48,001 nt of DNA from an uncultured Pseudomonadota bacterium (GTDB lineage: Bacteria > Pseudomonadota > Gammaproteobacteria > Methylococcales > Methylomonadaceae), in the NCBI GenBank assembly GCA_903858105.1, contig CAIOHN010000192.1:1-48001 (forward strand), in the 5' to 3' direction. Shown here in pieces: positions 3,804 through 32,347 of this stretch. A model generated the notes under the pieces. The model was not told where the DNA came from, searched no databases, and saw nothing but the letters and a program-made list of their open reading frames with translations. The first letter of the stretch is position 1; each line of letters begins with the position of its first letter. The translations under genes and the position numbers were made by a program.

Positions 3804-4042
3804 AACATAATTATTCGATGTCCCTAAAAACCAGGAACCAATCTGCAATCACATAAAAACCAAGCAATCAATAGATTGCCACTGGCCTTCAGCGCTAAAT
3901 GGCTAGATATTATCCAGATCAATTAGGTCGGCTACAACCAACCATTCTCTTAGAATATCTATTCCACTAATTGAATTGGAAGCCCGACGACTAACGCAAG
4001 CAAAACCGGACTAGCCCGGTAAAACACAAAGCTGACTTGAAT

Positions 4043-4106
4043 TTACAGAAGCCAGATTAAAGAAAACCTGCAATTTTGATTAAGATCAGATGAAGATTGG
4101 ATTAAC
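4043..4106 (-). promoter_or_regulatory. Putative promoter with 11-bp-periodic direct repeats upstream of the acyltransferase (copy A)
   Basis: Minus strand reads GTTAATC-caat-CTTCATC-tgat-CTTAATC. The region is similar to 16697-16770. Confidence 0.55.
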
Positions 4107-4133
4107 GCGTTTATTTCTTCTGCCGCCAAAGGC

Positions 4134-6264: not shown

Positions 6265-6282
6265 TGCATTTCTCCGATCATC

Positions 6283-7137: not shown

Positions 7138-7139
7138 CG

Positions 7140-7925: not shown

Positions 7926-7928
7926 GCC

Positions 7929-8882
7929 TTATATCTTCTCCGCGTAGACAGTAATGTAAATACCCAGACCCAATACATTCATCAAACCGGTAAACGGCAG
8001 TTGCGCCAAGCCTACCGCAGCATCGATAACGGCGGCCAGGCTACCTTTTAATCCCAAGCGTCTGGATACGGCATTGGTCGGTACCCGACTGATTTGCTCG
8101 GTTTTCAACACCCGCAAGCCGTTGCGCTCCAGCAAACTGACTAAACCTTGCTTGGTAAAATAATTGACGTGTTCCGGCACCCACAAACAGGCGTTGTCTC
8201 TGGTGCCCAATAGCTTGACCAAAAACGATGCGTAATTAGGCACCGCACAGGCCAACAGACCGCCGCTTTCCAATAAGCCGACCACTTTGGCGACTGCCAC
8301 ATCCGGTTCCAGCAAATGCTCCAGCACTTGCGACATCACCACCACGCCAAATTTCTGCTCAGACTGATAGTCTTCAAACATGATAGGCAACGGTTCGTCG
8401 CCGTTCAGATCCTTGAACACCTGGTTTTCATATTCGCCGGGATTGATACTCACCGTGCGATAGCCCAAGCGTCTCAGACCTCGGGTATAAAAACCAAACC
8501 CGGAGCCAATATCCAGGGCGCGGTAATTGCCGGATTTGTTCAACTCATCGGCTTGCTGCGCCATGCGCTGCGCATCTACCGTGCAATTGGGAAATTCAAC
8601 TTCACGCACCAGCACTTCATCCAGGCTGATGGCCTGCGTCAAAGCCTGCCCGGAATATTGATAAATGCTCTTTAGCCATTGCCGATGCGGTGGTTGATTC
8701 AAAAACCCGGTACCACAAGACTTGCAACGGTAAATATGAAAAACTTTGGCCGTAGAGCCTTCGGTGTATTGATAATCTTTCTGCCGCCAAAAATCGATTT
8801 TATCCGCGCCGCAAGCCACGCAGTTATAAATAACATCGCCGTAAGTTTGTGTTGTTGTCATTACATATGCCATCGTCGTCAC
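7929..8882 (-). CDS. Class I SAM-dependent methyltransferase with N-terminal CxxC...CxxC
   Basis: LDIGSGFG, QVLEHL, AVPN and PEHVNYF motifs. The start codon is uncertain (8860-8882). Confidence 0.85.
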   Translation of the reverse strand: MTTMAYVMTTTQTYGDVIYNCVACGADKIDFWRQKDYQYTEGSTAKVFHIYRCKSCGTGFLNQPPHRQWLKSIYQYSGQALTQAISLDEVLVREVEFPNCTVDAQRMAQQADELNKSGNYRALDIGSGFGFYTRGLRRLGYRTVSINPGEYENQVFKDLNGDEPLPIMFEDYQSEQKFGVVVMSQVLEHLLEPDVAVAKVVGLLESGGLLACAVPNYASFLVKLLGTRDNACLWVPEHVNYFTKQGLVSLLERNGLRVLKTEQISRVPTNAVSRRLGLKGSLAAVIDAAVGLAQLPFTGLMNVLGLGIYITVYAEKI

Positions 8883-9007
8883 CGTTATTTATCCCCCTAA
8901 CCCACTCCCAGATGAAGAGGGGATTTTTAGAGGTTTCTCTAAATCCAAAAACCGCCGTGTTTTAAAAAGTCGGCGTTAAATCCATTGCCATTGTTAAACC
9001 AATGCCT

Positions 9008-9099
9008 TTAAGTTAAGTCCCCTCTCGCAATTGCTCCTGCATTACTCGACTACCCTGCATCCTTGCAGGCATCCAGTCGGAAAGGGGACTTAAGTTAAG
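9008..9099. repeat. Composite palindromic (REP/MITE-like) element with internal GGA-loop hairpins
   Basis: Outer inverted repeat TTAAGTCCCCTCTC / GAAAGGGGACTTAA. Direct repeat TTAAGTTAAG at 9008-9017 and 9090-9099. Two inner hairpins. Confidence 0.55.
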
Positions 9100-10397
9100 G
9101 ACATTGCATTCAGACCCGGCGTTTTCACAAGCGCCTGCTCAACCGCGTGCCAAGGTTTGGCCAATAGCGCCAAGACCAATGCTTCAATACCAAAATACAG
9201 CGGATTAGCCCAAGCCGCGCCCGGCAAACCAAATTGACTAACCATTAATGGAATACTGATCGCCGCACTCACGACCCCGCACACCCGGCCTTTCAACAAA
9301 ATTTTGGTGCGCTTGCGCGCCAGCAGCGGTTGCGCAAGCGCCGTACCCAAGGCATGCAAAGCACAGCCCAGCGCCATGGCCGGCATCAAATTTACTGCCG
9401 TGTGGTAAGACTCGGCTAACACCAAAGATGCCACCCAATCTTTAGTCAACAGCACCACCAGCAAACCCAGCACTCCCAAACCGGCCACGCTAGAAATCCA
9501 CACCCACAAAACCGCATAGGCCTGCCGAATGTTGTTGGCCGAAAACGCCTGAAAATACGCTGGCTGAAACGTGCGTAACAACACCATCGCACTGCGATTA
9601 AAGGCTTCGTTGACGATGGTATAGGTGGCCGCGTACAAACCTACGTCGGCGGCGGTCAGCAAATAACCGATCACATAACGATCACCCAGACCATTAATCC
9701 AAAAAATCAATTCCATCGGAATCAAGGGCAAGGCATACACCCAAACCTCGCGACCAAAATGCCGACTTGCCGACGCTTGTGCTGGTACTGCGCGACGACG
9801 TCTGGCGACGATCCAGATCAAGTTCGATAACAAACTGGCCAGGATATAACCCAGCAACACCCATTCGGCATTGCCGCCCAGATACCAAACCAAACCAATC
9901 GCCAACAGCGGTCGCAAAATGCTATCGCTGGTTTGCCACAAACTTGCCAAGCGCTGCTTACGCTCGCCTATCGCTAACTGGATACCCAATTCGCGTTGCA
10001 CCGTAATCGCCAACAACAAGCCGGCCAACACAAACAAAATCATATTGCCATCGGCAAACTGACCATAAATCAAGCCCGCCAAAATCAGCGCCGCTATTGC
10101 CAGGCCGGTGGCTTTTAAAGTCAATCCGGCGACCGCCGCATGCAAGCCAAGGCGCTCGGCGGGGTTTTGACATTCAGGGACAATACGCATACCGGCGCAG
10201 ATAAACGGGTAGGAAAACACCGCCACCCCCAGCGCCACAAAACCGTTCAATAAAGCCACCTGCCCATACACATCCGGTGCGATCAACTCGGTCAGCAAGC
10301 GGGTACCCAGCAGCAAAGCCACTGCGGAAGCCATTTGTCCAAACAAGGCCCAAAAGGCGTCGCCGAATAATTGGGTTTGTGAGATAGCCTTAAACAT
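9090..10397 (-). CDS. wzx: Wzx-type oligosaccharide flippase
   Basis: Polytopic membrane protein with LTELIAPDVYG and DRYVIGYLLTAADVGLYAATY (MOP/PST flippase signature), in an EPS cluster. Confidence 0.8.
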   Translation of the reverse strand: MFKAISQTQLFGDAFWALFGQMASAVALLLGTRLLTELIAPDVYGQVALLNGFVALGVAVFSYPFICAGMRIVPECQNPAERLGLHAAVAGLTLKATGLAIAALILAGLIYGQFADGNMILFVLAGLLLAITVQRELGIQLAIGERKQRLASLWQTSDSILRPLLAIGLVWYLGGNAEWVLLGYILASLLSNLIWIVARRRRAVPAQASASRHFGREVWVYALPLIPMELIFWINGLGDRYVIGYLLTAADVGLYAATYTIVNEAFNRSAMVLLRTFQPAYFQAFSANNIRQAYAVLWVWISSVAGLGVLGLLVVLLTKDWVASLVLAESYHTAVNLMPAMALGCALHALGTALAQPLLARKRTKILLKGRVCGVVSAAISIPLMVSQFGLPGAAWANPLYFGIEALVLALLAKPWHAVEQALVKTPGLNAMSLT

Positions 10398-10408
10398 ATC
10401 CGTTTTCC

Positions 10409-11662
10409 TTAAGGTGTCTGCCGGACATAACCGGTATCGACTGGCAAAATGTGCGCCCGTCTGGCAGCGGCCTCAGATTTAACGGTACGTCCCAACACCA
10501 GTCCCCACAAAAACATCAAAATGGCGTTCTGCGGAAAGTACTCCCACATATTAAATGTCAGCCCGGCCACGAAGATAAACATCGTCACCAAGCCTTTATT
10601 AGGGTGGACAGACATCCGTGTCGTAGTCCATAAAAACATCAGGTACGCCAGCAATCCCAGCACGCCGTAGCCATTTAACAAAAACAAATACAAGCTGTCC
10701 GAATCAAACTGGCCCGGAAAATACTCGGCCCCAAACAACAGATTGACGGTGTTGGAACTCAAGCCCAAACCCCAACCAAACAGCACGTCCATCGGACCGT
10801 GCACATGGTGCTCAAACACCCGTTGCCACAAATCCAACCTACCGTCCTGGGTAGGATCAGCATCGTCGCGACCACTTAACAAGGGGCTGGAGGCTAAAAT
10901 TAAAGCGCCCACCGCCAAGATCGGGGCTGGCATCAGCAAGGCCCAGCGATCACGAGGGCGCAACGCGCAATAAACTTGAAAAAACACCACCAGCAAAGCG
11001 CTGATAAATGCGGTACGCGAGCCACTCAGCAAGGCCAAAAACACGCTCAGGGCCAACCAGCGGCGCATGCCGGGCACCAAAGCAAACAACAATGCGCAAG
11101 TCGCCATGGTCGCGCCAAACAAATTGGGACTTACAAAGCTACCAAATGGCCGCCCGCCGCCCAGCATCGACACCCCAAATAAAGGCGGCGCCCATAAAGC
11201 CTGTGCCAAAGCCAACCCGGTCTGCAAAACCATGTAATAGCGCAGATAACCGGCAAATTTGCTCACAACATAATCGCCAGCACCCAAACCACTGGTCACA
11301 AAACCAATCAAAGCCAGCGGCAGGTATTCAAATACCCGCAAGCCAGTCATCGGCACAATCAATGGCAAATCCAGATACAAGGCATAGGCCACTTCAAACA
11401 ATACATAGCTGGCGATCACGCCCAAAAACGCCAACACCGAACTACAAAAAATGCCGTTACGCAACCGCGGTTCCAGCCAGGCGTAGACGATCAATACCCC
11501 CAGCAAGGCTTCGCGTAACAAGCGCAAACCCACATCCTGCTCGCCGTACACTTCTTTAATCCCCAGCCAGGCCGATTCGACTTGCGGCAATGACGCCACT
11601 GTCGAGGCGCTAACCAAGGCAAACAACAGCATCGGCAGGTCTTTTTCCAGGCGGATTTTCAT
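10409..11662 (-). CDS. wzy: Putative Wzy polysaccharide polymerase / O-antigen ligase family protein
   Basis: Many TM helices with RPFGSFVSPN, LSGSRTA, GRLDLW, FGWGLG and DSLYL..GVLG motifs. Confidence 0.7.
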   Translation of the reverse strand: MKIRLEKDLPMLLFALVSASTVASLPQVESAWLGIKEVYGEQDVGLRLLREALLGVLIVYAWLEPRLRNGIFCSSVLAFLGVIASYVLFEVAYALYLDLPLIVPMTGLRVFEYLPLALIGFVTSGLGAGDYVVSKFAGYLRYYMVLQTGLALAQALWAPPLFGVSMLGGGRPFGSFVSPNLFGATMATCALLFALVPGMRRWLALSVFLALLSGSRTAFISALLVVFFQVYCALRPRDRWALLMPAPILAVGALILASSPLLSGRDDADPTQDGRLDLWQRVFEHHVHGPMDVLFGWGLGLSSNTVNLLFGAEYFPGQFDSDSLYLFLLNGYGVLGLLAYLMFLWTTTRMSVHPNKGLVTMFIFVAGLTFNMWEYFPQNAILMFLWGLVLGRTVKSEAAARRAHILPVDTGYVRQTP

Positions 11663-11671
11663 CGGCGCTGC

Positions 11672-14023
11672 TTAAACCCGCTCGTCGGCTTCAGCGGCAA
11701 CCGGCAACAACTCACGCTCCATTTGCTTGCCCAACCAATCGCCGACTGCATGATATTTGTCTTCCCAACTAGACTCGGACTTGGGTTCCTGATCGGCCCG
11801 CTGGTAGGCATAGCCGTAATACGGATAGTAAGACGAGCCTTCCTTCATATCGTTGATGATGAAGCCGTTAGGTTTGATACCGACTTGCTGGAAACGACGG
11901 GCGCTAACTTCCAATTCCTGCGCGGTATAGCGACCTTCTTTCACCACCAGAAAAGTGGCGTCGGCGTGTTTACCCAAAATCGCCGCGTCAGTGGCGCCCA
12001 AAATCGGCGGCGAATCGATGACGATATGGTTATAAAAGCTTTTTAATTGCTCCAACATCTCGGGAAGCTCGCCCAACACCAATAACTCAGCCGGGTTTAG
12101 CACCATATTGCCTCGTGGAATCAAATCGATGCCCACGCCTGGCAAGCTGATAATCACTTCGCCCAGCGTGGCTCTGCCAGCCAGTAAATCCGACAAACCA
12201 AGTTGCTTGCCAACCCCAAAAGTATCGTGCAAGCGACCATTACGCATGTCGGCGTCGATCACCAGCACCCGTTTTTTGATGCTGGCCAGCAAGGCTGACA
12301 AATTGGCGCTGACAAATGACTTGCCCATGCCCGGTGCCGGACTGCTGACCATGATGACTTTGCTTTCATGTTGCGCCAGCGTCGCTTCCAGGGTGGTACG
12401 CAGGCCCCGCAAAGACTCCACTGAAATATCCAGTGGGTCTTGACTCACCAAAATCCCGCTGTCGCGATCTTTGCCCAACAAACGACCAATCTTGTGTTGT
12501 TTTTTGCTATGCGGAATCGCCGCGAACATCGGTATGCCTACTTGATGTTCCAGCAAAGCCGGATAATTGTCGTGGCGTTGCAGCGAATGTCTCAAGAAAA
12601 TCAACGCCGATCCCAAACTCAAGCCCAACAAGCCAGCAATCGCCAACAACAAACTAGGCTTAGGCCAATACGGTTTTTCTGGGGTGACTGCAAAATCGAC
12701 AATCCGCGAGTTACCCAAAGAACCCGCCGCCGCGATACGTTGCTCCTGGGCGCTGTTCAGCAGCGAGGTATACAACTGGGTATTAACTTCCACATCGCGG
12801 GCCAGACTCACCATGTTTTGCTGGGTGCGCGGCAGGTCTTTGATACGTTTTTCCAAAGCCGCCAGTTTGTTGTTGACGCGTTTGATCTGGGCGTTGGTGG
12901 CCATCATGTCCGGATGCTCTGACTCCAGGCGCTGGCTTTGCTCGTCGTATTTTTGTTTGAGCTGAATGCCTAAGGTTTCCATATCCGAGGCTTGTTTCAG
13001 CAAAATCTCGGCTTCAGCAGAAATATCCACCGCGCCGTGTTGCTGACGATAAGCGCTCAAACCTTGCTCGGCTTTTTCCAGACGTTCTTTAACGATAGGC
13101 AACTGGCTTTCCAGAAAACCCAATTTTTGCGACGCTTCTGCCGACTCCCAGTTCACCGTGGCATTGACGTAAATCGCCGCAATATCGTTCACCGATTTGG
13201 CCAACTGTTCCGGGTCGCGGCCTTTTAACTCCACGCTCAGAATGTCGGTGTCTTTGGATACTTCCTTGACCGCAAAGGCTTTCTGCAAGGTTTCGATAGC
13301 CGATAAAGCCGTCCTGCGGGTCAATTCAAAATGTGTACCGGCATGCGCCTCCAGTTCATCGATTTTAATCATCACCGGCGTTTTTTCGCCGACCTCGCCG
13401 GTTAACACATCGCCGACATTACCTTCGATTACCACGTCGCCTTTCGGGCTAATTAATTCAAAGCGCCCTGCTTCCAAAGCAATCAGGGTAAATTCTTTTT
13501 CCAGGTAGCGATCCGGCACGTCAAAGGCGGCGATTTTCAACTTCTCGCCGCCCCAGGCCCAACGACTAAAACCCCACCAGGCATCAGATGCCGCATCGTG
13601 CGCATCGTGTTTGCGCGCCAGCGTTTCACCAATAACAGGAAAGAAATACGGCTCGGCTTCGATAGCCAGATTCAGGTTTTCGACCACTTTGCCCAGCACC
13701 GAACGCGAACGCAAAATCTCCACTTCGCGTTGCGCTCTGGGGCTTTCGGCTTCGGCGGGCGCTTGATTGGCTTCGCTACGCAAGCTAGCCGACAGCAAGG
13801 CTTTGTTTTTATCGATCCGCAACAAGGCGTCGGCTTTGTAGGTGCGCGGCGCCAGTACCAGGTAAACCGAAGTCACCAGCAGCACCGAACACAAAACGAT
13901 AAAAATGGTCTTTTTGCCTTCGATCAGCAAATCGACATAATCCCGAATACTCACGCCCTGCTCTTCGAGCCGGGACTGATTCAGCGGCGAAAACACAGGG
14001 GTAGCTTCAATTTTTGCTTGCAT
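11672..14023 (-). CDS. wzc: Polysaccharide co-polymerase / tyrosine autokinase Wzc
   Basis: Wzz-like N-terminus, ESLRGLRT, Walker A SPAPGMGKS, IDADMR, IDSPP and a C-terminal Tyr cluster SSYYPYYGYAY. Confidence 0.93.
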   Translation of the reverse strand: MQAKIEATPVFSPLNQSRLEEQGVSIRDYVDLLIEGKKTIFIVLCSVLLVTSVYLVLAPRTYKADALLRIDKNKALLSASLRSEANQAPAEAESPRAQREVEILRSRSVLGKVVENLNLAIEAEPYFFPVIGETLARKHDAHDAASDAWWGFSRWAWGGEKLKIAAFDVPDRYLEKEFTLIALEAGRFELISPKGDVVIEGNVGDVLTGEVGEKTPVMIKIDELEAHAGTHFELTRRTALSAIETLQKAFAVKEVSKDTDILSVELKGRDPEQLAKSVNDIAAIYVNATVNWESAEASQKLGFLESQLPIVKERLEKAEQGLSAYRQQHGAVDISAEAEILLKQASDMETLGIQLKQKYDEQSQRLESEHPDMMATNAQIKRVNNKLAALEKRIKDLPRTQQNMVSLARDVEVNTQLYTSLLNSAQEQRIAAAGSLGNSRIVDFAVTPEKPYWPKPSLLLAIAGLLGLSLGSALIFLRHSLQRHDNYPALLEHQVGIPMFAAIPHSKKQHKIGRLLGKDRDSGILVSQDPLDISVESLRGLRTTLEATLAQHESKVIMVSSPAPGMGKSFVSANLSALLASIKKRVLVIDADMRNGRLHDTFGVGKQLGLSDLLAGRATLGEVIISLPGVGIDLIPRGNMVLNPAELLVLGELPEMLEQLKSFYNHIVIDSPPILGATDAAILGKHADATFLVVKEGRYTAQELEVSARRFQQVGIKPNGFIINDMKEGSSYYPYYGYAYQRADQEPKSESSWEDKYHAVGDWLGKQMERELLPVAAEADERV

Positions 14024-14085
14024 AATTTTTCGTAAACCAAATTGGTTGAAAAGAAAATCTTGTTAAACCCTTAACCTGAGTAAGC

Positions 14086-15186
14086 CTACATCCCCATCAT
14101 CGCCGCTTGCGACATGATGGCGGTGAACGATCCCGGTAAAATCTGGTTCAGCACCCGCGACCATTGCGTCACACCGGCAGTACCAATGAACAGCGTGTCG
14201 TGAGCTTGTAGCGGAAATTGATCGGCCAGAATCATGGCATCCGGCGATTCGCCATTTAATTGGAAAATCTCGGGATGCATGTCGCCCGCGCGAATCACGT
14301 AAATATCGCCGGGCCGCGAGGTATTAAAGTCAACCCCGGACGCCTCGGCCAAAGCCTGCGACAAACTCATCCGACCTTTATTGATCTGAATGGCTTGCTG
14401 GCGATTGGCCTCGCCCATGACAAATACTTTGCTGTCTTTTTGATCGCCGACATTCAACACATCGCCGTCTTTTAACAGCAGGTTATGGCTGGTCAGGCCT
14501 TTTTCGTACATGGACTGCACATCCAGTTTGTAGAGTTTGCCGTCACGAGCCAGCGCCACATTGGCAAAATCGGAATCTTTGGTAGAACCGCCAGCCCTGG
14601 TGATGGCTTCCGCCACAGTCAACGGCGTTTCGTTCATGGTTTGCACGCCAGGACGGGTAACCTCGCCCACTACTGCCACCCGGTGCGCCTGGAAAGACAA
14701 CACGCGAATATCCAGTTTGACCTTTTTAAAGTATTTGGACAGTTCGTGAGTCAAATCGGCGCGCGCTTCAGTGACGGTCTTGCCGGCCACATGAATAGCG
14801 CCAACATAGGGGTAATACAGATCGCCATTCTCATCCACCACTTTACCGGCCATTTCCGGGGCGATTTTTTCGCCGCCGGGATCGTTTAGTTCAGGGTGTT
14901 CCCAAACGGTAATCTGCAATCTGTCCTGCGGACCGATGCGGTAACTGGTTTTATTGGGATCTACCGGCGGCAAGCTGTTGATGGCTTGCCGGCGATTGGC
15001 TTCCCGCTCGATAATCAAATCGGCGGTGATCGGCACGATACGGACTTTTTCTTTTACCAACTGCCCGTCTTTATTGGTTGGCAGCTCGATTTCGGTCATG
15101 CCGTTATCGTTGTTCATATCCATGCCCGGTGCCAGAAAACAGCCTGGCAAGGTTAAAACCAGCATGATGGGAATCAATCTAAACAT
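14086..15186 (-). CDS. wza: Outer-membrane polysaccharide export lipoprotein Wza
   Basis: Lipobox LPGC, YRIGPQDRLQITVWEHPEL, YPYVG, SLBB repeats and WSRVLNQILP. Confidence 0.93.
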   Translation of the reverse strand: MFRLIPIMLVLTLPGCFLAPGMDMNNDNGMTEIELPTNKDGQLVKEKVRIVPITADLIIEREANRRQAINSLPPVDPNKTSYRIGPQDRLQITVWEHPELNDPGGEKIAPEMAGKVVDENGDLYYPYVGAIHVAGKTVTEARADLTHELSKYFKKVKLDIRVLSFQAHRVAVVGEVTRPGVQTMNETPLTVAEAITRAGGSTKDSDFANVALARDGKLYKLDVQSMYEKGLTSHNLLLKDGDVLNVGDQKDSKVFVMGEANRQQAIQINKGRMSLSQALAEASGVDFNTSRPGDIYVIRAGDMHPEIFQLNGESPDAMILADQFPLQAHDTLFIGTAGVTQWSRVLNQILPGSFTAIMSQAAMMGM

Positions 15187-15199
15187 GTTCAATGGTTCC

Positions 15200-16621
15200 T
15201 TAGTAAGCGTTTTTATTGATAAAACCGGTCAGCACGGTGCGGAAGGCGATCTCCAGATCAAACCAGACCGACCAATGCTGGATGTAATACAAATCGTGTT
15301 CGATGCGACGATTCAAATCGGTGTCGCCGCGCCAGCCGTTGACTTGCGCCCAGCCAGTAATACCGGCTTTAACCATGTGTTTTTTCATGTAGTTGGGCAC
15401 TTGCTCTTTAAACACTTCGACAAAATCAGGGCGCTCAGGGCGTGGGCCGACCAGCGACATATCGCCCAGCAATACGTTGATCAATTGCGGCAGTTCGTCC
15501 AGGCTGGTTTTGCGCAGGAAAGCCCCGAACGGTGTGGCGCGATTTTCGCCGGGCTTGGCCCAGACTGCGCCGGTGTTGGCTTCGGCATCGACCGGCATGG
15601 AGCGAAACTTCAGCATGGTGAAGGAACGATTATTCCAGCCCACCCGCTCCTGGCGATAAAACACCGGGCCGCGTGAACTCAATTTGACGCCGATAGCCAG
15701 AAACAACATTAACGGGCTGATCAGCAGCAGCAACACGAAAGCCAGCAATCTATCTTCCAACTCTTTGATGTAGCGATTAACGCCATGCAGCGGCGACACG
15801 GAGAAATCCAGCGTCGGGATACCGGCCACGGTGTTAAGGCTAAGAAATTTGCTTTGTTTGAAGGCAAAACAGTCAATCACCAAGCGTATGCTGACCGGCA
15901 GATGTCTTAATTGATATTGGGCGCGTTCAGTTAAGGATTCGCCTTGATACGCCACCCAGACTTCGTCGATCGACTGCTCCGCGATGATGGCGGCTAAATC
16001 CTCCAATTTGCCCAGACGTGGCAGCGAGGCATCGTGCAGCGCATGCCGGTCTTCGCCTCTATCATCGACATAACCGACTACTTGCAAGCCGGCCCAGGAC
16101 GAATGATTCAACTGGCGACTAACCGCCACCGCCATTTGATTTAAACCGACCATGACAATCCGGCCTTGCGACCAGCCGCGAGCCCGCAACCAGCCCAACA
16201 CTTGCGCCAACAGCGCCCGAGCACTTAATACAAACGTCAGCCCCAACACACCCCAGGAGGCAATCCAGCGATAACTGGAACCAAACCAAAAGTGCATTCT
16301 GACTAATGCCACGATGGTTACCACCGCCAATAAAGCCGAAATCCAGGCTCTGACGATACGGGCAATCTCGCCGCGCATCGCATCGTTGCGCCAGGGCCGA
16401 TACACCTGACCAATTTCAAAAAAGATGATGGCCCCGAGTATGCCCAGCGCGATGACGATCCGGTAATCCTGATCGATGCCATAATCGCGCAACCAGTAAT
16501 AGTGAGTCACCCAGGCAGCGGCAAACAACATGGCAACGTCGATGATGCGCAGCAACAGAATCACCGTATGACCGTACTGCTTGAAGAGCCCGTTGAAAAT
16601 ATTTCCCAAACCGAGTGGCAT
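15200..16621 (-). CDS. wcaJ: Undecaprenyl-phosphate glucose phosphotransferase (priming glycosyltransferase)
   Basis: KFRSM, RKTSLDELPQLINVLLGDMSLVGPRPE, KAGITGWAQVNG and DLYYI motifs. Start placed at ATG 16621 after AGGGG. Confidence 0.9.
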   Translation of the reverse strand: MPLGLGNIFNGLFKQYGHTVILLLRIIDVAMLFAAAWVTHYYWLRDYGIDQDYRIVIALGILGAIIFFEIGQVYRPWRNDAMRGEIARIVRAWISALLAVVTIVALVRMHFWFGSSYRWIASWGVLGLTFVLSARALLAQVLGWLRARGWSQGRIVMVGLNQMAVAVSRQLNHSSWAGLQVVGYVDDRGEDRHALHDASLPRLGKLEDLAAIIAEQSIDEVWVAYQGESLTERAQYQLRHLPVSIRLVIDCFAFKQSKFLSLNTVAGIPTLDFSVSPLHGVNRYIKELEDRLLAFVLLLLISPLMLFLAIGVKLSSRGPVFYRQERVGWNNRSFTMLKFRSMPVDAEANTGAVWAKPGENRATPFGAFLRKTSLDELPQLINVLLGDMSLVGPRPERPDFVEVFKEQVPNYMKKHMVKAGITGWAQVNGWRGDTDLNRRIEHDLYYIQHWSVWFDLEIAFRTVLTGFINKNAY

Positions 16622-16696
16622 GTCTATTAATCCCCTGTGTTGTCCTTTTCCAATAACCAACCGATAAAACCGGTTTGTTACGCTTAGGTGCAAAGA

Positions 16697-16770
16697 TTAC
16701 AGAGGCAAGATGAGGAAAATCTGCGGGTTTGATTAAGATCGAATTAGGAAAGGCTTAACTTTGGATGAAG
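16697..16770 (-). promoter_or_regulatory. Putative EPS operon promoter with four 11-bp-periodic direct repeats (copy B)
   Basis: Minus strand reads CTTCATC-caaa-GTTAAGC-cttt-CCTAATT-cgat-CTTAATC, then a -10-like TAATCT. Similar to 4043-4106. Confidence 0.55.
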
Positions 16771-16862
16771 GCCGCATAACGCTAGCGGCCTTTAGGAAAA
16801 GGTCAGCGCTGATCAAATAAGTCGGCCTTAGCCAACGGCTTTAATCAGCGCCCCACAATCAC

Positions 16863-17717
16863 TTACACGGCATTTTTTTTGCCTTTAGCCAAACCCAGCA
16901 AACCCAGCATGCCGCTCATAAACAACCAGGTTGCGCCCGGCAAGGGCACTGCGGAGACCCCAGATACCGAAAAGGCTTGATTGAAAGCCGTGCCGCCTAC
17001 AATATCGGTGCCGATTCTCAACCAATCAGGTGCCAGGTTGCCATCGCGAATCCAGGATTGCAGATCAGGCGTGAATGGGCCGCTACCGCCGACTATCGGT
17101 TTAGCCGCCGACAGCCAGAGGAAATTACCGTTTTTCAGTTCCACCTGCGGGACAAAAAAGTAATGGTCTGCCGCCAGCGACATCGCGTTGTTAAAATTTA
17201 CCTCAAATCGCACTTCCTGACCGCTGACTGGCCCTTCACCGCCGGTAGTCTGGTTGGGAAGCGGATGAATGCCGTTGAGTACCGAATTTGCGGCGGTTGC
17301 ACTGTTATTCAAAGAAGTAACGCTAAAGCTTAAAGAGCCTGCTGCCGATTCGCGGCCATCGAAGGCGATGTCTGACGGCGAGTTAACGCGGGTCGGCACG
17401 CGGCCTGAGGGTGGGCTTACAGAATCCTTGGAGAATACCCGATAGATTTCTACATTCACATTGGCAATATCCCCCAGCGTGGCGCCGTTGGTTAATAGCC
17501 CGGTAAATGTGGCGTGGTTTAACTGGGTTTGCTGCGTCAACACGAAGTCGTCAGCCGATTCTATTTCGGCATTACCGGTTCCGCCGATCTGCGCGCCTGC
17601 GCCGAGTCTAAAATCCGCATCGCCGGTGCTGAAAGAAAATGCAGCGGCTTGGGCGTGGTGGGCGTTGGCTGCGAACAGTGTCGAAATGGCCAGCATAGGT
17701 ATGAATTTGTATTGCAT
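16863..17717 (-). CDS. Secreted VPLPA-CTERM (PEP-CTERM-like) sorting-domain protein
   Basis: AAGGAG RBS before ATG 17717. Signal peptide ending ...AQA. C-terminal AVPLPGATWLFMSGMLGLLGLAKGKK (motif, TM helix, basic tail). Confidence 0.88.
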   Translation of the reverse strand: MQYKFIPMLAISTLFAANAHHAQAAAFSFSTGDADFRLGAGAQIGGTGNAEIESADDFVLTQQTQLNHATFTGLLTNGATLGDIANVNVEIYRVFSKDSVSPPSGRVPTRVNSPSDIAFDGRESAAGSLSFSVTSLNNSATAANSVLNGIHPLPNQTTGGEGPVSGQEVRFEVNFNNAMSLAADHYFFVPQVELKNGNFLWLSAAKPIVGGSGPFTPDLQSWIRDGNLAPDWLRIGTDIVGGTAFNQAFSVSGVSAVPLPGATWLFMSGMLGLLGLAKGKKNAV

Positions 17718-17804
17718 GTGATTACTCCTTAAACAGATAAAAGTAATGAGGCACTTAGCTGTGCCACATATCAAGAAACTGATTCCAGCTTCTAATAATC
17801 TCAA

Positions 17805-17821
17805 TGCGAGTAACATGCCAA
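17805..17821 (-). promoter_or_regulatory. sigma54 (-24/-12) promoter of the VPLPA-CTERM gene
   Basis: Minus strand TTGGCATGTTACTCGCA with correct GG-N10-GC spacing, and an AT-rich tract just upstream. Confidence 0.7.
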
Positions 17822-17884
17822 AAGTAATAACAAAAATATTTATCTTAAAAATCATAACGTTAAAACAAATCATACTAAACTGAT

Positions 17885-17998
17885 CGCAACCCAGGGATGC
17901 GACGAAAGTTGCTGAGGAAAAGCTGAAAATGCGATGCAGCCACACAGCAAGCGGCCTAGGCAGCAATCCGGGTTGCTGCCGCAGCAACTTTTGTCGCA
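17885..17998. promoter_or_regulatory. Cluster of GCAAC-N4-GTTGC-like palindromes (candidate enhancer/UAS)
   Basis: GCGACgaaaGTTGC, GCAATccggGTTGC and GCAACttttGTCGC, plus a degenerate GCAACccaggGATGC. 17898-17914 and 17982-17998 form a 16/17 inverted repeat. Confidence 0.6.
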
Positions 17999-18211
17999 GA
18001 CTAAATTAAGCACTGCCTTCGGTGATTTTAAACCTCTGGTAGTGCGGCTTTAGCTGTCGCATTACCTAAAACGCTAATGCTTGATAATGTTATGCAGAAG
18101 CCATGCACCACTATCATGGGAACGACTACAAAATTTAAGCGTACCGCCATTGCATTCAAGGATAGAATGAGAAATCCAACTTAAAAGCCGAACTTTCTGC
18201 GATAAGCCAAC

Positions 18212-19184
18212 ATGACCCGGAAGAGTAATCCACACCTTTTACCATTGGGATATTTAGGCATTTTGCTGTGCACATGTGCTGCGGCTGAAACGCTGACGCC
18301 GCTGCCACTGACCACGACCGCCGACCCTGAAAAAATGGCATTGGGGCAGCGCTTGTTTCACGACCCCCAATTATCCGATCAGGGCAAACGCTCTTGTGCC
18401 AGTTGTCATCCGCTGGATAGCGGCGGCATGGATGGCAAAATCCGCGCTGAGTCGGCGGATGGCGTTTCTGTGCTGCGTAATACGCCCAGTTTGTTTAACG
18501 TGGGTTTTAACTACTTTTTTAACTGGGATGGCGTGGTGACTTCCCTGGAAGCACACACTGAAAAAGTCATGTTGAATCCCAAAATCATGAATGCCAAATG
18601 GCCGGTGGTCATCGAACGCTTAAGCGCCGAGCGTGATTATGTCGATGCTTTTTAGTCATGCCTACCCAGATGGCCTGACTAAAACCAATGTCATCGATGC
18701 CTTGAGTCATTTTGAACGTAGTCTGCTGACACCCAATGCGCGTTTCGACCGCTTTCTAAACGGCGATGCGACTGCGCTCGACGCCGACGAACAGCAAGGT
18801 TATCGATTATTTACCTCGCTGGGCTGTGTCGCCTGTCACCAGGGCATCAATCTGGGCGGTAATCTGTTTCAGAAGTTTGGCATATTCGGCGTCCCGCAAA
18901 CTACTCCCAATCAAGCTGACGGCGGACGTTACAGCGTGACCGGTAACGAGCGGGATCGAGGCGTGTTCCGGGTGCCTAGTTTGCGCAACGTTGCGGTCAC
19001 GGCACCTTACTTTCACGATGGTCGTGCCGCCAACCTGGAAACCGCGGTAAATACTATGGCCGAGTATCAATTAGGCAAGCCACTTGCAAAGCAACAGCGT
19101 ACTTTGCTGCTTAAGTTTCTGCAGACATTAACCGGCGAGTATCTCGGCAAAAGCCTGGCAGTCGATAACAAACCCAAACCATGA
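18212..19184 (+). pseudogene. Di-heme cytochrome c peroxidase (CcpA/MauG family), split by a +1 frameshift
   Basis: ORF1 (18212-18655) has LGQRLFHDPQLS, CASCH, NTPSLFN and NWDG. ORF2 has CVACH and FRVPSLRNVAVTAPYFHDG. Deleting one T from the T5 run at 18649-18653 fuses them into 323 aa. Confidence 0.85.
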
Positions 19185-21199
19185 CCACAATTTCCTGGCA
19201 GCCCAAACTGATCGTCGCCAGCCTATTGCTGGCATTGACGTATTTATGGCTGCAAAGCGCCAACCCGGAATTGGAACGCCGCAATCGCCTGCAAACCACG
19301 CTGCGGATCATAGAACTGCATGACGCGGAATTGATGCGGGACATATTGATGGCGCGGGCCGGTCTGTTAAGCAATTACGATGCCTTAACCAAAGCCGGCC
19401 AGGAATTGCTGCGCTTATCGCAAAGCCTGCGCACCGACTTGGAGCCGGTCGGCGGCGAGGCTGAGAAGCGGCTGGGGGCTTTGGCCGATAAGCTGTCTGC
19501 GACCATTCAGGAACGATTGGCAATGATCGAGTATTTTAAATCGGACAATGCGTTGCTCCGCAACTCGCTGATGTCCTTCAACGAGATGGGCAAAAGCTTG
19601 GGCACTAAGGCCAAACCTAACTACACCCCACCGCTAGAGAATCTGTGGCGCATGATGCTGGCTTTTCTGGAAACTCCCGAACCCACATTGGCCAGAGATA
19701 TTCAGCTGGAACTGGATCGGCTATCCGGGCTTGGCCCACGCTCTGACGACGACAAAATTTTGATCGCACACGGTCGCTTGATTATAGAAGTACTACCCAA
19801 GGTGGATACTTTGCTGCGGGAGATTCTCGACCAGTCTATCATCGTCCGGGTCGATGACTTGCAACAGGCTTTGCGCCATTACAGTGATGCAGTGGAACAG
19901 CAGGCACAAGCCTATCGCTTATCGCTGTATCTGGTGGCAGTTGTGCTATTGGCATATTTACTGTATCAATTTGCCATGCTCAGAGCGAGTACCTTGAGTT
20001 TGCGCCGAGCGCATGCAAATTTGCAACAGGCCGAAGCCTGGTTGCGCGAAAGCGAAGCCCAACTACGCGCTATCACCGATTCTGCGCATGAAGCGATTGT
20101 CTCCGCTGATGTCGCCGGAAACATTGTTTCCTGGAATCACGGGGCTAAGCTAATGTTCGGTTATTCATCGGAGCAGGCACTAGGCCAGCCATTCCAGCAA
20201 TTACTGGTCAATCCGCAACCAACCGCAGATCCGACAATCGCGATGCAGGAATCGACAGGTCTACGGCAGAATCGAGCTAGGTTTCCGGTCGAATTATCGC
20301 TATCGAGTTGGAGTCGAGGCGCAGAGCGTTACATAACCGCCATTATCCGCGACATCAGCTCCCGTAAACACCTGGAAGAAGTAGCCAGACAACAAGAGCT
20401 GCAATTGATTCAGGCGAATAAAATGAAGGCATTGGGTACTTTGGTAGCAGGCGTCGCCCACGAAATCAACAACCCCAACCAATTGATTTCACTTAACTCA
20501 GGGCTGTTAGCGGCTATTTGGAGCGACGCGCTCGATATACTGGAGGATCATTATCAAACAACAGGCGAATTTTCCTTGGGAGGCTTGCCATACACAGAGA
20601 TGCGCGGCACAGCCGGGGTATTGATCCATGATATTAAAGACGGTGCAAAGCGGATAGAACGCATCGTCGCTGAGCTGAAAAACTATGCCCGCCCGCAACA
20701 TAGTGGCGTGTCAGTGGCGATCTCAGTAAATGCAGTCGTGGAGCGCGCGGTGCGCTTGTTAAGCCATTTGATCAGCCAAAAAACCCGACGCTTCAAAACC
20801 GATTTTAGCGCAGCTTTACCACTGATAAATGCCGACCCACAGCAACTCGAACAAGTGGTGGTGAATCTGCTGATTAACGCTTTGGAAGCGCTTTCCGATC
20901 CAGAAAACGCTGTCAGTGTCGCCACCCGTTTACTCGACAATGGCGATTCGGTCTGCGTCGAAGTCCGCGATGAAGGTATCGGCATTGTCGCGGAACATAT
21001 CGAACAATTATGCGATCCCTTCTTTACCACCAAACAGGCCAACGGCGGCACCGGGCTGGGTCTGGCGATTGTGGCATCGTTGGTGCGCGCCCACGGCGGC
21101 CGCTTAAAATTTATCTCGTCAGTCGGGCAAGACACCTGCGCCCAGGCGATTTTCCCCGCAACTGCGATACAAGCCGATGAAACCGACTACGCCCAGTAA
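19181..21199 (+). CDS. Membrane sensor histidine kinase (all-helical DAHL-like periplasmic domain, PAS, HisKA, HATPase)
   Basis: Two TM segments flank a helical domain (RAGLLSNYD, FKSDNALLRNSL). PAS region SWNHGAKLMFGY, H-box GVAHEINNP, NLLINA, DEGIG, PFFTTK and GTGLGL. ATGA overlap with the peroxidase stop. Confidence 0.92.
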   Translation: MTTISWQPKLIVASLLLALTYLWLQSANPELERRNRLQTTLRIIELHDAELMRDILMARAGLLSNYDALTKAGQELLRLSQSLRTDLEPVGGEAEKRLGALADKLSATIQERLAMIEYFKSDNALLRNSLMSFNEMGKSLGTKAKPNYTPPLENLWRMMLAFLETPEPTLARDIQLELDRLSGLGPRSDDDKILIAHGRLIIEVLPKVDTLLREILDQSIIVRVDDLQQALRHYSDAVEQQAQAYRLSLYLVAVVLLAYLLYQFAMLRASTLSLRRAHANLQQAEAWLRESEAQLRAITDSAHEAIVSADVAGNIVSWNHGAKLMFGYSSEQALGQPFQQLLVNPQPTADPTIAMQESTGLRQNRARFPVELSLSSWSRGAERYITAIIRDISSRKHLEEVARQQELQLIQANKMKALGTLVAGVAHEINNPNQLISLNSGLLAAIWSDALDILEDHYQTTGEFSLGGLPYTEMRGTAGVLIHDIKDGAKRIERIVAELKNYARPQHSGVSVAISVNAVVERAVRLLSHLISQKTRRFKTDFSAALPLINADPQQLEQVVVNLLINALEALSDPENAVSVATRLLDNGDSVCVEVRDEGIGIVAEHIEQLCDPFFTTKQANGGTGLGLAIVASLVRAHGGRLKFISSVGQDTCAQAIFPATAIQADETDYAQ

Positions 21200-22613
21200 G
21201 GATGTCTCCCACCTGCCGATTCTGCTGGTAGACGATGAAGCGCAATTGTTGCACAGCGCCAGTTTGGTGTTGCGTAGCGCCGGCTTTGCCGAGGTACTGA
21301 CTCTGGACGACAGCCGAGCGGTTTTACCGTTGCTGGCAAGCCGGGCTATCGGCGTGATCGTGCTGGATTTAACCATGCCAAATCTATCAGGCCGGGAATT
21401 ATTGGAACAAATTGCCGCCGAGTATCCGGAAATTCCGGTGATCATGATGACGGCCACCAACGATCTGCAGACTGCGGTGCAGTGCATGCGCCTCGGCGCT
21501 AGCGACTACCTGCTTAAACCGGTAGAGCAAAGCGGCATGCTTGCCTCAGTGCGCAGGGCAATCGAAACCCGAGTCCTGCGTACAGATTTTTTATCGCTGA
21601 AAGAACGGCTGCTGACTAACAGCCCGCATGAAGCCAGCAGTTTTGCCGACATCGTCACCCAAAGCCCTGCCATGTTCGCGATTTTTCGTTACATCGAAGC
21701 AATCGCCACATCGCCACAACCAGCGCTAATCACAGGCGAAACTGGCTCCGGCAAAGAGCTTATCGCCCGCGCTTTGCATCGCAAGTCGGGCCGCCCCGGC
21801 GATTTGGTGGCTGTTAATGTCGCCGGTCTGGACGATACCTTGTTTGCCGATACCTTGTTCGGCCACGCCAAAGGCTCGTTCACCGGTGCCGAGCGGGCCC
21901 GCGACGGCTTGATCGCCAGTACCGGCGACGGCACACTATTTTTGGATGAAATTGGCGACCTCAGCATCGCCTCGCAAGTCAAGTTGCTGCGGTTATTGCA
22001 AGACGGCTCATTCTACCCGATAGGCGCTGACCGGCCGCGGCAAAGTCGGGCGCGAATAGTCGTAGCGACCCATTGCGATGTTAGACGTCAGGTCGAGCTT
22101 GGCACATTTCGGAAAGACTTATATTTCCGCCTGCGTACCCATCACATTCAATTGCCACCACTGCGCGACCGCCGCGAAGATCTGCCGCAACTGGCTATGC
22201 ATTTTGTCGTAAAAGCAGCCGAAAGCTTGGCAAAACCGATACCCAGCGTACCACCCAGCCTGTTTCAATGGCTGCACAACTATGCATTCCCCGGCAATAT
22301 TCGCGAGTTGGAAGGCATGATATTCGATGCGGTCGCTCGCAGTCAGGGAACGATGCTGTCGTTACAAAGCTTCAAAGAAGCCATTGCCAATGACTCGCCA
22401 ATGCATGACGACGGCGACGCAGCACCTGACATTGACGCTTCACCCGGCAGCTTTCCGGATCGCTTACCGACATTAAAGGAAGCAGAAGACTCGCTGATTA
22501 GCGAAGCCTTGCGCCGCGCCCACGGAAATCAGGGCGTAGCCGCTGGCTTATTGGGTATTAGCCGACAAGCCCTAAATAAGCGCTTGATTAGGCGTGAGGT
22601 AGAGAATATTTGA
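21177..22613 (+). CDS. sigma54-dependent NtrC-family response regulator (REC-AAA+-Fis HTH)
   Basis: LVDDE, LDLTMP, GETGSGKE, GSFTGA, TLFLDEIG, FPGNIREL and GNQGVAAGLLGISR motifs. Confidence 0.95.
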   Translation: MKPTTPSKDVSHLPILLVDDEAQLLHSASLVLRSAGFAEVLTLDDSRAVLPLLASRAIGVIVLDLTMPNLSGRELLEQIAAEYPEIPVIMMTATNDLQTAVQCMRLGASDYLLKPVEQSGMLASVRRAIETRVLRTDFLSLKERLLTNSPHEASSFADIVTQSPAMFAIFRYIEAIATSPQPALITGETGSGKELIARALHRKSGRPGDLVAVNVAGLDDTLFADTLFGHAKGSFTGAERARDGLIASTGDGTLFLDEIGDLSIASQVKLLRLLQDGSFYPIGADRPRQSRARIVVATHCDVRRQVELGTFRKDLYFRLRTHHIQLPPLRDRREDLPQLAMHFVVKAAESLAKPIPSVPPSLFQWLHNYAFPGNIRELEGMIFDAVARSQGTMLSLQSFKEAIANDSPMHDDGDAAPDIDASPGSFPDRLPTLKEAEDSLISEALRRAHGNQGVAAGLLGISRQALNKRLIRREVENI

Positions 22614-22834: not shown

Positions 22835-23092
22835 ATGAAAAAAACTTTAATAACAATCACTGCGCTCGCTTTATTGACCTTAATACCATCCCTGTCAAAC
22901 GCTGGCGACGCAGATACCTGCAAAGGTTGTCACAATGGTTCGGTTGGGCCAGCTGTTGACGCCTTAAAAACCAAGTTCAAAACGGCTGATGCGTTAGTAG
23001 CCGGTGCTAAAAGCTCACAAAACCCCATGATGAAGGCTGTCCAGGGCGATGAAGCTAAATTAAAAGCCGCTGCCGCTGAAATTGTGAAATAA
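22835..23092 (+). CDS. Small periplasmic monoheme c-type cytochrome
   Basis: GAGGAG RBS, signal peptide, CKGCH heme motif and a candidate distal Met (NPMM). 85 aa. Confidence 0.85.
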   Translation: MKKTLITITALALLTLIPSLSNAGDADTCKGCHNGSVGPAVDALKTKFKTADALVAGAKSSQNPMMKAVQGDEAKLKAAAAEIVK

Positions 23093-28962: not shown

Positions 28963-29448
28963 TCACTCATCCCAGCCTTCGGATTCCATTTCATCAAACC
29001 GTTCTGGATTTGGGCCTTTATACTGATTGATCGCCTTGGCCAGCCAGCTCGACGGCCCGGCTTTCATCTCTTTCTGCAGGTCGCTAATCAAATCCTTGAT
29101 AGTGCTGCCTTCTTGAACTTTGACCGGCTGAATGCCTTGGGCAAGAATTTGATTGATCGCCGATGCGCCAATGGCTTGGCAATACACTGCCGCGCAACCG
29201 TCCAGCAATTGAATCTTTACCGATAATTTGTCTTCGTTGCCGTCCTGAGCCAGTTCACCAAATTGGGCGGCTTCCATTAGCTCCGACTGCTCTGGATCGA
29301 CCGCATACACGGCGAAGGATTTGGCAGAACCGAAATGCTGATTCACATGAACCATGTCGGTGGTGGCAAAAGCGACTTTAATAGCGGTTTCCATGGGCAT
29401 CCTCTGTTCGTGGGTATGCAAAACCTGCATGCGGCGAGCTAATGACAT
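28963..29448 (-). CDS. nifX: Nitrogen fixation protein NifX
   Basis: [30 protein letters not shown] and WLAKA motifs, directly after nifN. Confidence 0.9.
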
Positions 29449-30836
29449 GACGGCGAGCAGGTTTGGCGTTCGGATTCGGGTTTTTGGGCGTACGGCGAGT
29501 GATAAACCTCGATCTCTTCGTGGGCAAAATTAATCACCAGATTGGCCAGATCGAACAAGGCTTGCCGGGTGCCCCGATAGCCGATCCAGGTTTTTTGATA
29601 GCCGCCGATGATGTCGTATAAAGGAAAGCCCGCGCGTAACACCGGAATACCCAAGCGCTCGGCACTGGCTACAGCATGCGAGTTGCCGATCAGCAGTTGC
29701 GCTTTGCGCTCTTTAGCCATCAGTTCCAGGTCTTCCAGGTCGCCAATCTTGATGCTATCGACTGGCGCGGTCGCCAACACCGGCGCGTTGCCAGCAGCTA
29801 TGGCGACCACCACTTCCGCGCCCATGCCTTGCACCAAATGGATAAACGCATTGAGTTGATCGGGATCACCGGCAATCGCTACTCGTAATTGGCCAAGCAT
29901 GAAATGGGTATCCAACATGGCGTCCTGCAATTGCGCGCGTTGCCGTTCTATTTTTTGCGGCACCGGTTGCTCGCTGATCTCGGCCAAGGTGGCAATCAAG
30001 GCATCGTTGGCTTGCAACCCGTATAAATGATCGAAAAAGTGGCTGGGAACCCCGGTTTTTTCCTGTAGCAAATCACCGGCTTTGCGCAGCGAAGCACCGA
30101 TTATCAAGCTGGCTCTGGCTTCGCCGAGCGTGGCCAATTCAGAAACCGGCGTGCCGCCGATAGTTACCGGCGAGAAATCGTCGTCGGTCAGACTGCCATC
30201 CAGGGAATCGGATAAATCCGGCACCAGAACCGGGCGTAAATTGAATTGTTCGATCAAATCGCGCAAAGCTTCCAAATCGCCGGGGGTCAACATGGGGCTG
30301 ACCAGCACGTTCAACTGACGTTTACGATTGCCGGGCTTGGTACCGGCGATTTCGGCATTTGGCACCAGTTCCTTGACGATTTCGTAAATCGTGGCGGCAA
30401 AACCGCTTTCCACGCAGCCGGTAAAATCGGGGGTATTCACCGCGACCACCGCGACATGGGCGTATTCGGGATATTTATCGCGAAACTCGCGCAGATTGCG
30501 ATGAACGTCGCAGCCTTGGGTTTCTGCCAAGCCAGTGGTCAATACCGCGATCAGGGCTGGATTGGATTTTTCGGCGATAGCTCGAATACCCTCGATGACG
30601 TTTTCGTCAGCACCCAGTACCGAGCTGGCCTGATCCATGGCGGTGGTTTGCAGCGGAATCGGCTCGCGGAAATGCCGGACAAAAAACACTTTGGCAAAAG
30701 CCGTGCAGCCTTGCGAACCGTGCAACATCGGGATGGCCCGATCAAATCCCAAGCAGGCCAGCGAGCCGCCCATAGGCTGACTGGCTTTTAGCGGATTGAC
30801 CGACAGGGCTTTATTGCGTTTGACGATTTCGGCCAT
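29439..30836 (-). CDS. nifN: Nitrogenase FeMo-cofactor scaffold NifN
   Basis: [40 protein letters not shown] and [13 protein letters not shown] motifs. Confidence 0.97.
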
Positions 30837-30839
30837 GGT

Positions 30840-32330: not shown

Positions 32331-32347
32331 TGCAACGGATATGCCAG
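32331..32347 (-). promoter_or_regulatory. sigma54 promoter of nifENX
   Basis: Minus strand CTGGCATATCCGTTGCA, a near-consensus GG-N10-GC site. Confidence 0.9.

Follow-up and report, generated by a model that had tools for sequence, protein, structure and literature searches.

Why does a gene for a cytochrome c peroxidase-like protein lie within a signalling operon, what would such an operon sense and which gene would it control? We addressed this question in a window of 48 001 nt (the whole stretch of DNA that was analyzed) from a Methylomonas-like methane oxidiser. The cassette is composed of a CCP_MauG gene (18212..19184, + strand), a DAHL-PAS kinase gene (19181..21199, + strand), whose start overlaps the peroxidase stop by 4 bases, and a sigma54 activator gene (21177..22613, + strand), which overlaps the kinase gene by 23 bases. 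It is divergent from the gene of a secreted, VPLPA-tailed protein (16863..17717, − strand), and the arrangement of three overlapping genes opposite a VPLPA-CTERM gene given in a preliminary description of the locus was found in full. We consider it fairly probable that this cassette is a one-target circuit, in which a peroxidase-like haem protein without catalytic residues acts as periplasmic redox detector for the DAHL kinase.

The kinase is a membrane histidine kinase with the domain order DAHL-PAS-HisKA-HATPase. Its DAHL domain scored 168.6 bits against PF19443 (cut-off 38) and its HATPase domain 80 bits, a PAS domain is present, and HisKA scored 22.6, below the cut-off of 26.9, with an H-box visible in the sequence. 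A simple scan put only the second of its membrane helices above threshold; overall the protein belongs to the DAHL kinases. The activator (REC-AAA-Fis HTH) is of the NtrC type: it has the REC Asp, intact Walker A and B motifs, the Fis HTH and a GAFTGA-like loop, which reads GSFTGA in the window and GAFTGA or GAYTGA in close homologues. In most relatives' loci the activator gene is followed by a class II aldolase gene.

The spacer between the divergent genes suggests what this activator controls. As claimed previously, a correctly spaced sigma54 −24/−12 promoter faces the VPLPA gene (17806..17820, − strand); it is conserved among relatives, and each of the 11 relative genomes that carry the module has it. 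Taken alone, the motif match does not stand out from chance (the window has 2 matches against 0.99 expected, with 30 of 100 shuffles reaching 2), and the site is credible because it is conserved, its identity to the window being 86% across 8 relatives, while the spacer outside the motifs reaches 45%. Another sigma54-like string, near 17751-17766, was rejected for its 11-base spacing, and no sigma70-like promoter was found in 16600-18300. Next to the promoter lies an AT-rich tract (17821..17897); it includes an IHF-like sequence (17850-17862) that departs from the IHF consensus at one position. Beyond it follow two 16-bp dyads, a promoter-proximal one of the pattern TGCGAC-N4-GTTGC (17898..17913, + strand) and a distal one that is its inverted copy (17983..17998, − strand). 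These correspond to the enhancer-like palindromes noted earlier and are 96% conserved, while the surrounding spacer is poorly conserved. The proximal dyad is 92 bases from the promoter in the window (91-92 in relatives), and the spacing from dyad to dyad is 86 (88-89 in relatives). On the other side of the promoter we observed an inverted repeat at the predicted transcription start (17774..17793, − strand), a candidate operator or leader hairpin that is nearly invariant in 6 aligned sequences and shows no compensatory change in its stem among them, and the ribosome-binding site AGGAG of the VPLPA gene (17725..17729, − strand), which is conserved in the spacer alignment.

The dyad pair is unique in the 3.26 Mb of the 78%-complete genome, in which no wider regulon was found. 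In metagenomes all eight loci carrying the pair adjoin the same activator subfamily, and at L195, L219, L221 and L222 the pair and a sigma54-like site travel with the activator to different genes; at L221 and L222 dyads and promoter are degenerate, and no dyad pair was found near the out-of-genus trio at L220. Because the pair follows the activator subfamily to other secreted-protein genes, the two dyads are likely to be its binding site. The preliminary description had named gene neighbourhood as a check, and the break in synteny that was to count against it was not seen: all four genes are syntenic, with the VPLPA gene adjoining the trio, in all 11 same-genus genomes that carry the activator gene. 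The VPLPA gene stands beside peroxidase and DAHL genes in 7 of 7 Methylomonas loci and in none of the 73 other loci. A general VPLPA-peroxidase link was rejected, as none of these 73 has both a peroxidase and a DAHL gene and only one has a weak MauG-like neighbour. Synteny together with the conserved dyads and promoter supports the proposed self-contained circuit with sigma54 control of the divergent gene, and we regard it as very likely that the activator drives the VPLPA promoter. Judged from gene order, the VPLPA gene is the lineage-specific output of the module, and the same activator subfamily has other predicted secreted targets elsewhere. The suggested tie of the surface protein to an EPS operon had to be given up: the operon adjoins in the window, but is missing from 8 of 8 relatives' loci.

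The likely output is a secreted protein of 284 aa from an ATG with a ribosome-binding site (the 374 aa of the ORF finder count from an upstream TTG). Its tail consists of a VPLP motif, a hydrophobic stretch and a basic end, and a protein 82% identical to it (P0021) is named VPLPA-CTERM. A homology search gave 7358 matches among 8000 scored, while no Pfam or NCBIfam model matched. The predicted structure is a jelly-roll, lectin-like domain (pLDDT 83) with the Cwp84 lectin-like domain as best fold match (Z 11.8, rmsd 3.1, 152 aligned), with which a viral capsid chain ties (Z 11.5). The protein is predicted to be a lectin-like surface protein. An exosortase is encoded in the same genome (PF09721, 225.9 bits, contig C364). 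Beyond the VPLPA gene, several relatives' loci contain restriction or mobile genes.

What the circuit might sense leads to the haem protein, which is similar over its full length to di-haem cytochrome c peroxidases (E 3e-62 to 1iqc, 2e-66 to 9qdt). Two CXXCH haem motifs are present, one in each half of the frameshifted gene in the window and both in 8 of 8 intact relatives, and the second-haem Met ligand, the bridging Trp and the Ca-site Asn/Thr/Pro are kept in the window sequence. However, in alignments to 1iqc, 9qdt and 3o5c the distal Gln/Pro/Glu is replaced by His/Val/Ile, in the window as in all 8 relatives. According to PMC6405878, bCCPs, MauG and BthA all share this triad, and the E277Q substitution impairs activity. 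Of the 8 relatives, 7 have another gene, outside the module, for a canonical Gln/Pro/Glu peroxidase; none was found in the window's own 78%-complete genome. The distal Glu is also missing in four out-of-genus trios and in two non-linked homologues (L017 and L018). Since the distal triad is absent, sensing via ordinary peroxide turnover is unlikely in the Methylomonas lineage. Of the earlier proposal of a peroxide or redox co-sensor, the co-sensor part is likely to hold, and the best reading of the protein in this lineage is a putative non-catalytic co-sensor. The altered pocket might instead serve a co-sensor whose signal is a ligand bound by the open haem (NO, CO, O2, sulfide or a small anion), with the distal His as ligand or hydrogen-bond donor, and not bulk redox. 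Replacing Gln with His and Glu with Ile lowers the polarity of the distal pocket and introduces a potential ligand; these changes are fixed in the 8 relatives, and the His recurs in G496, G524, L162, P0241 and P0242. Nevertheless, we consider ligand sensing improbable: all 62 DAHL-linked proteins retain the inter-haem Trp and the second-haem Met, which fits electron transfer.

The case for a dedicated redox co-sensor is extended by the pairing of peroxidase and DAHL genes across genomes. Among 65 DAHL matches in 401 genomes, which are kin chosen by the DAHL model, 57 have a peroxidase gene directly upstream on the same strand, 6 do not and 2 lie at contig ends, 12 matches below the cut-off being left out. 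The outputs of the peroxidase-paired sensors comprise histidine kinases, hybrid histidine kinases, GGDEF-EAL and GGDEF proteins. On a quick tree, whose branches are long and whose non-DAHL rows number only 20, all of one order, the DAHL-linked peroxidases group together (2 label changes compared to 18 when shuffled). Peroxidase distances track DAHL distances, also between paralogues in different genomes (Mantel r 0.55, reached in 0 of 2000 permutations; 56 rows left after removing 10 near-copies). Neither result proves contact, because neighbouring genes co-inherit. Two singletons (P0245 and P0248) are clean single-chain peroxidase-DAHL fusions with no membrane helix between the domains; the other four of six such fusions retain the first membrane helix of the kinase and may be read-through artefacts. 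We also found myxobacterial fusions of a Ser/Thr kinase, a transmembrane segment and a peroxidase. The distal Glu is retained in 43 of 62 DAHL-linked peroxidases and the whole triad in 32 of 56; most keep the Glu, and therefore loss of catalysis is not general. On balance, the haem protein is probably the co-sensor of the kinase.

Somewhat less probable still than ligand sensing at the haem is a DAHL domain that recognises a small metabolite itself, the peroxidase being merely a co-transcribed detoxifying or electron-transfer protein. For Tlp10, detection of small ligands, malate among them, by the DAHL domain is reported (PMC9796306), and six DAHL genes have no upstream peroxidase. A DAHL model of a relative is all-helical; its fold search returned nothing at E 0.001 or better, with a malate/succinate-binding McpS domain as weak best match (E 5.6e-3) and TorS as a weak neighbour (E 0.029, TM 0.45). 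However, 88% of the examined DAHL genes keep the overlap with an upstream peroxidase gene across unrelated outputs, and the triad was lost in the module while 7 of 8 relatives have a canonical paralogue.

In the window a single surplus T in the run at 18649-18653 splits the CCP_MauG gene into halves of 147 and 183 aa. If the gene were truly broken in this strain, the circuit would be decaying or locked; the frameshift does stand in the assembly, and at L199, one of 17 related loci, a different lesion, the duplication of 4 bases, lies a few bases from this position. Against this, the gene is in frame in the other 16 of 17, and an otherwise identical contig from run X1 (depth about 5) lacks the extra T; this is the only contig bridging the site, which runs X2, X3 and X4 miss, and X1 may be the source sample. 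Because of this contig the frameshift is probably an assembly error, and we hold a broken gene to be quite unlikely. A role as MauG-like oxidising enzyme, with the DAHL domain, a signal molecule or the surface protein as its substrate, is very improbable for the haem protein. The CCP_MauG superfamily to which it belongs does include modifying enzymes, but the haem protein has a His/Met and not a His/Tyr ligand pair at its six-coordinate second haem, it lacks the Glu that BthA is described to need (PMC6405878), and membership in the MauG/MbnH/BthA group was rejected as its halves, scored separately, remain far below the cut-offs (TIGR03791 at most 79.8 vs 443.85, TIGR04039 at most 102.9 vs 362.85).

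In the redox circuit that we favor, the haem protein would dock onto the DAHL helices and its haems would adjust to the periplasmic redox state (cytochrome pool, O2 or H2O2) with no efficient turnover. A redox-linked shape change would set the activity of the kinase; once phosphorylated, the activator would bind the two dyads and loop across the AT-rich tract to the sigma54 polymerase, and this contact would switch on the exosortase-sorted, lectin-like surface protein. We lean slightly towards redox or oxidant state as the signal. To a wider view we give an even chance: DAHL may mainly dock a dedicated di-haem co-receptor, peroxidase plus DAHL forming a widespread, undescribed class of periplasmic redox sensors, of which the Methylomonas pseudo-enzyme with its His/Val/Ile pocket would be a version wired to a single sigma54 promoter that decides on display of the surface protein. 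A literature search found no description of a peroxidase-DAHL sensor; supplementary gene-neighbourhood tables could bear on novelty.

Oxidant and redox sensing outside the inner membrane is poorly mapped in bacteria, and the role of DocA in colonisation without peroxide protection is left unexplained as summarised in a review (PMC3156733). With the triad lost in nature, sensing is set apart from detoxification, and a single promoter with a defined enhancer offers a reporter for the role of the haem protein, which makes the neighbourhood pattern directly testable. If the proposal is true, many genes labelled cytochrome c peroxidase need re-annotation, and in methane oxidisers the circuit may connect surface adhesion with gradients of oxygen.

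Among known systems, Agrobacterium VirA is the best NCBIfam match of the kinase (NF010411, over the DAHL region), although membership was rejected (250.7 bits against a cut-off of 647) and the window kinase has other cytoplasmic domains and a regulator of another class. The periplasmic protein ChvE is the partner of VirA. Like the canonical di-haem peroxidases of Nitrosomonas (1iqc) and Pseudomonas (1eb7) and the chain 9qdt, the haem protein keeps haem motifs, Trp, Met and Ca-site residues; unlike the canonical enzymes, it has His/Val/Ile for Gln/Pro/Glu and its gene lies in a signalling operon. With PrsK/PrsR, as described in PMC1569441, the cassette shares a kinase, an NtrC-type activator and an enhancer plus −24/−12 site before the gene of a C-terminally sorted protein. 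Membership was rejected (TIGR02916 70.5 vs 300, TIGR02915 264.3 vs 502.6), and PrsK had no match in the window's own genome at 1e-30. While PrsR is described as serving many genes, the window's promoter pattern precedes one of 24 tail-filter matches in the genome, a few of them false. Escherichia coli TorS, with TorT and apo-TorC, likewise has an all-helical periplasmic kinase domain controlled by partners, one of them a c-type cytochrome, and apo-TorC is reported to bind its periplasmic region (PMC8534201); unlike TorC, which is described as acting in its haem-free form in negative feedback, the partner has a peroxidase fold with both haem motifs kept. A further likeness, compared by description only, is to Campylobacter jejuni, where docA (Cj0020c), a peroxidase gene whose product is reported to confer no H2O2 resistance, lies directly upstream of the DAHL receptor gene docB/tlp10 (PMC3156733). 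Tlp10 is a chemoreceptor and reported small-ligand sensor, whereas the DAHL domain in the window is linked to a PAS kinase and a sigma54 activator; new here are the lost distal triad and a defined enhancer and target for a peroxidase-DAHL pair.

All four genes of the cassette were found at the positions assigned to them in the preliminary description. In the window sequence the VPLPA gene (17717-16863, - strand) is divergent from the genes of the peroxidase-like protein (18212-19184, +), the DAHL-PAS kinase (19181-21199, +) and the sigma54 activator (21177-22613, +), and the described overlap of these three was confirmed, with 4 bases between peroxidase and kinase and 23 bases between kinase and activator. 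Among named homologues, those closest to the VPLPA protein and to the activator come from Methylomonas (80-86% identity). We observed an orthologous peroxidase in 8 of 36 same-genus genomes (74-79% identity; referred to as relatives), and in all eight the VPLPA gene lies divergent from the peroxidase-kinase-activator trio, so that the proposed synteny holds. Activator matches at 1e-170 number 16 among 301 genomes of the order (the source genome, 11 of the same genus and four others), and each of the 11 same-genus loci, all of which were read, carries the full cassette. A VPLPA orthologue occurs in 13 of 45 genus genomes, namely the source genome, the same 11 and, as a broken fragment, G035. 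The four out-of-genus trios all keep the order peroxidase, DAHL kinase, activator; at L219:4855-12346 the trio has genes for a canonical peroxidase and for a formaldehyde-activating enzyme in its neighbourhood. VPLPA proteins form a large family spread across phyla (7358 matches among 8000 scored), and the VPLPA gene adjoins peroxidase and DAHL in 7 of 7 Methylomonas loci compared to 0 of 73 other loci. The suggested link to an EPS operon was not borne out, as none of the eight relatives has one beside the cassette. The Wzy-type EPS operon of the window (3060-16693, -) ends in a PEP-CTERM/exosortase-associated acyltransferase (TIGR03694, 169 vs 111.95 bits).

Taken alone, the -24/-12 site of the VPLPA gene (17806-17820, -) is no more than expected by chance. 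Upstream of it lie two 16-bp dyads (17898-17913 and 17983-17998), and across the eight relatives the dyads share 96% identity with the window, the promoter 86%, the non-motif stretch between 45% and the sequence further upstream 37%. The dyads are 86 bases apart in the window and 88-89 in the relatives, with 92 and 91-92 bases, respectively, to the promoter. By pattern search and weight matrix the pair occurs once in the source genome, and a scan of the metagenome collection returned 8 loci, seven of them Methylomonas-type with some near-duplicates, all beside this activator subfamily, whose helix-turn-helix end is nearly invariant. At two loci that were part of the matrix training set, the dyad pair lies 3' of the activator, together with a sigma54 site pointing at two different secreted-type genes (L195) or a promoter pointing at RTX-repeat and DUF3455 genes (L219). 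Ahead of a -24/-12-like site with CC at -12, a weaker pair was found at L221 and one seen by eye, under the matrix threshold, at L222; no pair was found at the out-of-genus trio L220. As the motif tracks the activator and not the target gene, we infer that the dyad pair is likely the binding site of the activator. At the predicted VPLPA transcript start (17774-17793, -) an inverted repeat is almost unchanged between sequences; as it shows no covariation, it may act as an operator and not as an RNA hairpin. Another sigma54-like site (32332-32346, -) lies just upstream of nitrogenase-component-type genes (29439-32300).

Next, we compared a relative's protein with solved peroxidases. Both CXXCH motifs, the bridging Trp and the Met ligand are kept, while the distal Gln, Pro and Glu (labels following Pseudomonas numbering) are replaced by His, Val and Ile, as in the window and all eight relatives; the Glu is also missing in the four out-of-genus trios. 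A canonical peroxidase identity was rejected by this altered triad. The triad is reported to be conserved across bCCPs, MauG and BthA, and the Glu to be required for activity (PMC6405878). The triad loss cannot be generalized to DAHL-linked peroxidases, since 43 of 62 keep the Glu, 32 of 56 have the full triad and two peroxidases with no DAHL link also lack the Glu. In 7 of 8 relatives a further peroxidase gene encodes the complete triad. In the source assembly (379 contigs, 3.26 Mb, 78% completeness) none of canonical size was found; three longer two-CXXCH family proteins (621-663 aa) are encoded on contigs C216, C66 and C244. A small secreted single-haem cytochrome c gene directly 3' of the activator (22838-23092, +), missing there in the eight relatives, is possibly an electron partner specific to this strain.

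Loops of these di-haem peroxidases move with redox state. In the mechanism that we consider probable as a whole, the exported haem protein would sit on the DAHL helices and report the periplasmic redox or oxidant state via its intact two-haem wire, without turning over peroxide efficiently. The activator, once phosphorylated by the kinase, would bind the dyads and switch on the sigma54 promoter that serves the surface-protein gene. Gas or ligand sensing by the haem protein in place of redox sensing is unlikely.

The pairing of peroxidase and DAHL extends well beyond this cassette. PF19443, the DAHL model, matched 59 of 401 genomes and none of the 14 controls. Within the 65 matches over the cut-off (12 under it were left out), 57, including the window, have a peroxidase gene immediately upstream and six have none; two lie at contig ends. 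For the cassette, we regard direct ligand binding by DAHL itself as slightly less probable still than gas or ligand sensing by the haem protein. The output domains of the paired proteins differ widely. Tree clustering, for which L011 and L187 were labelled DAHL-linked by hand, and distance correlation show co-inheritance and are not evidence of contact. Both domains occur in one chain in 6 of 77 longer homologues; four have a membrane helix between them and may be read-through, and two, both singletons, have none (P0245 and P0248, with a C-terminal nucleotide cyclase and kinase, respectively). An independent line comes from fusions of a Ser/Thr kinase, a single membrane helix and a peroxidase (P0283 and about 40 similar proteins, many from Sorangium), which suggest that the peroxidase serves as an outside sensor domain and represent a receptor-kinase version of the same idea. 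At L193:5931-10347 an OmpR-type regulator, a peroxidase and an 835-aa DAHL kinase adjoin virB-like type IV secretion genes, and at L039:4002-9648 and L040:4606-9450 the peroxidase-DAHL kinase pair precedes genes for a MauG-like protein with a Tyr ligand and for a TAT metallophosphoesterase, and an OmpR-type regulator is encoded close by.

In the window, one surplus T in the run at 18649-18653 splits the peroxidase-like gene. The only contig bridging this site (run X1, depth about 5, possibly from the source sample) is otherwise identical and lacks the extra T. The frame is intact in 16 of 17 related loci; the exception, L199, carries its own 4-base duplication near 6350, a few bases from the break position in the window, as an independent event. 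Hence the extra T is most likely an assembly error, and a gene truly broken in this strain is very improbable. MauG-like chemistry by the haem protein, with its replaced triad, we hardly credit at all.

The VPLPA protein was modelled as a beta-sandwich with a signal helix and a C-terminal helix (pLDDT 83). In structure it matches best to the lectin-like domain of Cwp84 (Z 11.8, rmsd 3.1, 152 aligned) and to jelly-rolls of viral capsids or baseplates (Z 8.7-11.5), followed by PHR and carbohydrate-binding modules; our guess from the model is that it may bind glycans. Homologues of about 495 aa (P0002-P0004 and similar), scoring equal to close orthologues, are perhaps tandem two-domain forms, and L059 has two adjoining copies. 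An exosortase is encoded in the source genome, in which no match to PrsK was found.

A PrsK/PrsR identity of the cassette and a VirA identity of its kinase were both rejected. We found no description of a peroxidase-DAHL sensor in the literature covered, outside which lie two primary Campylobacter papers. Among known systems, the cassette would work in a manner similar to TorS and its protein partners, and the peroxidase-DAHL pair resembles the gene pair DocA/DocB.
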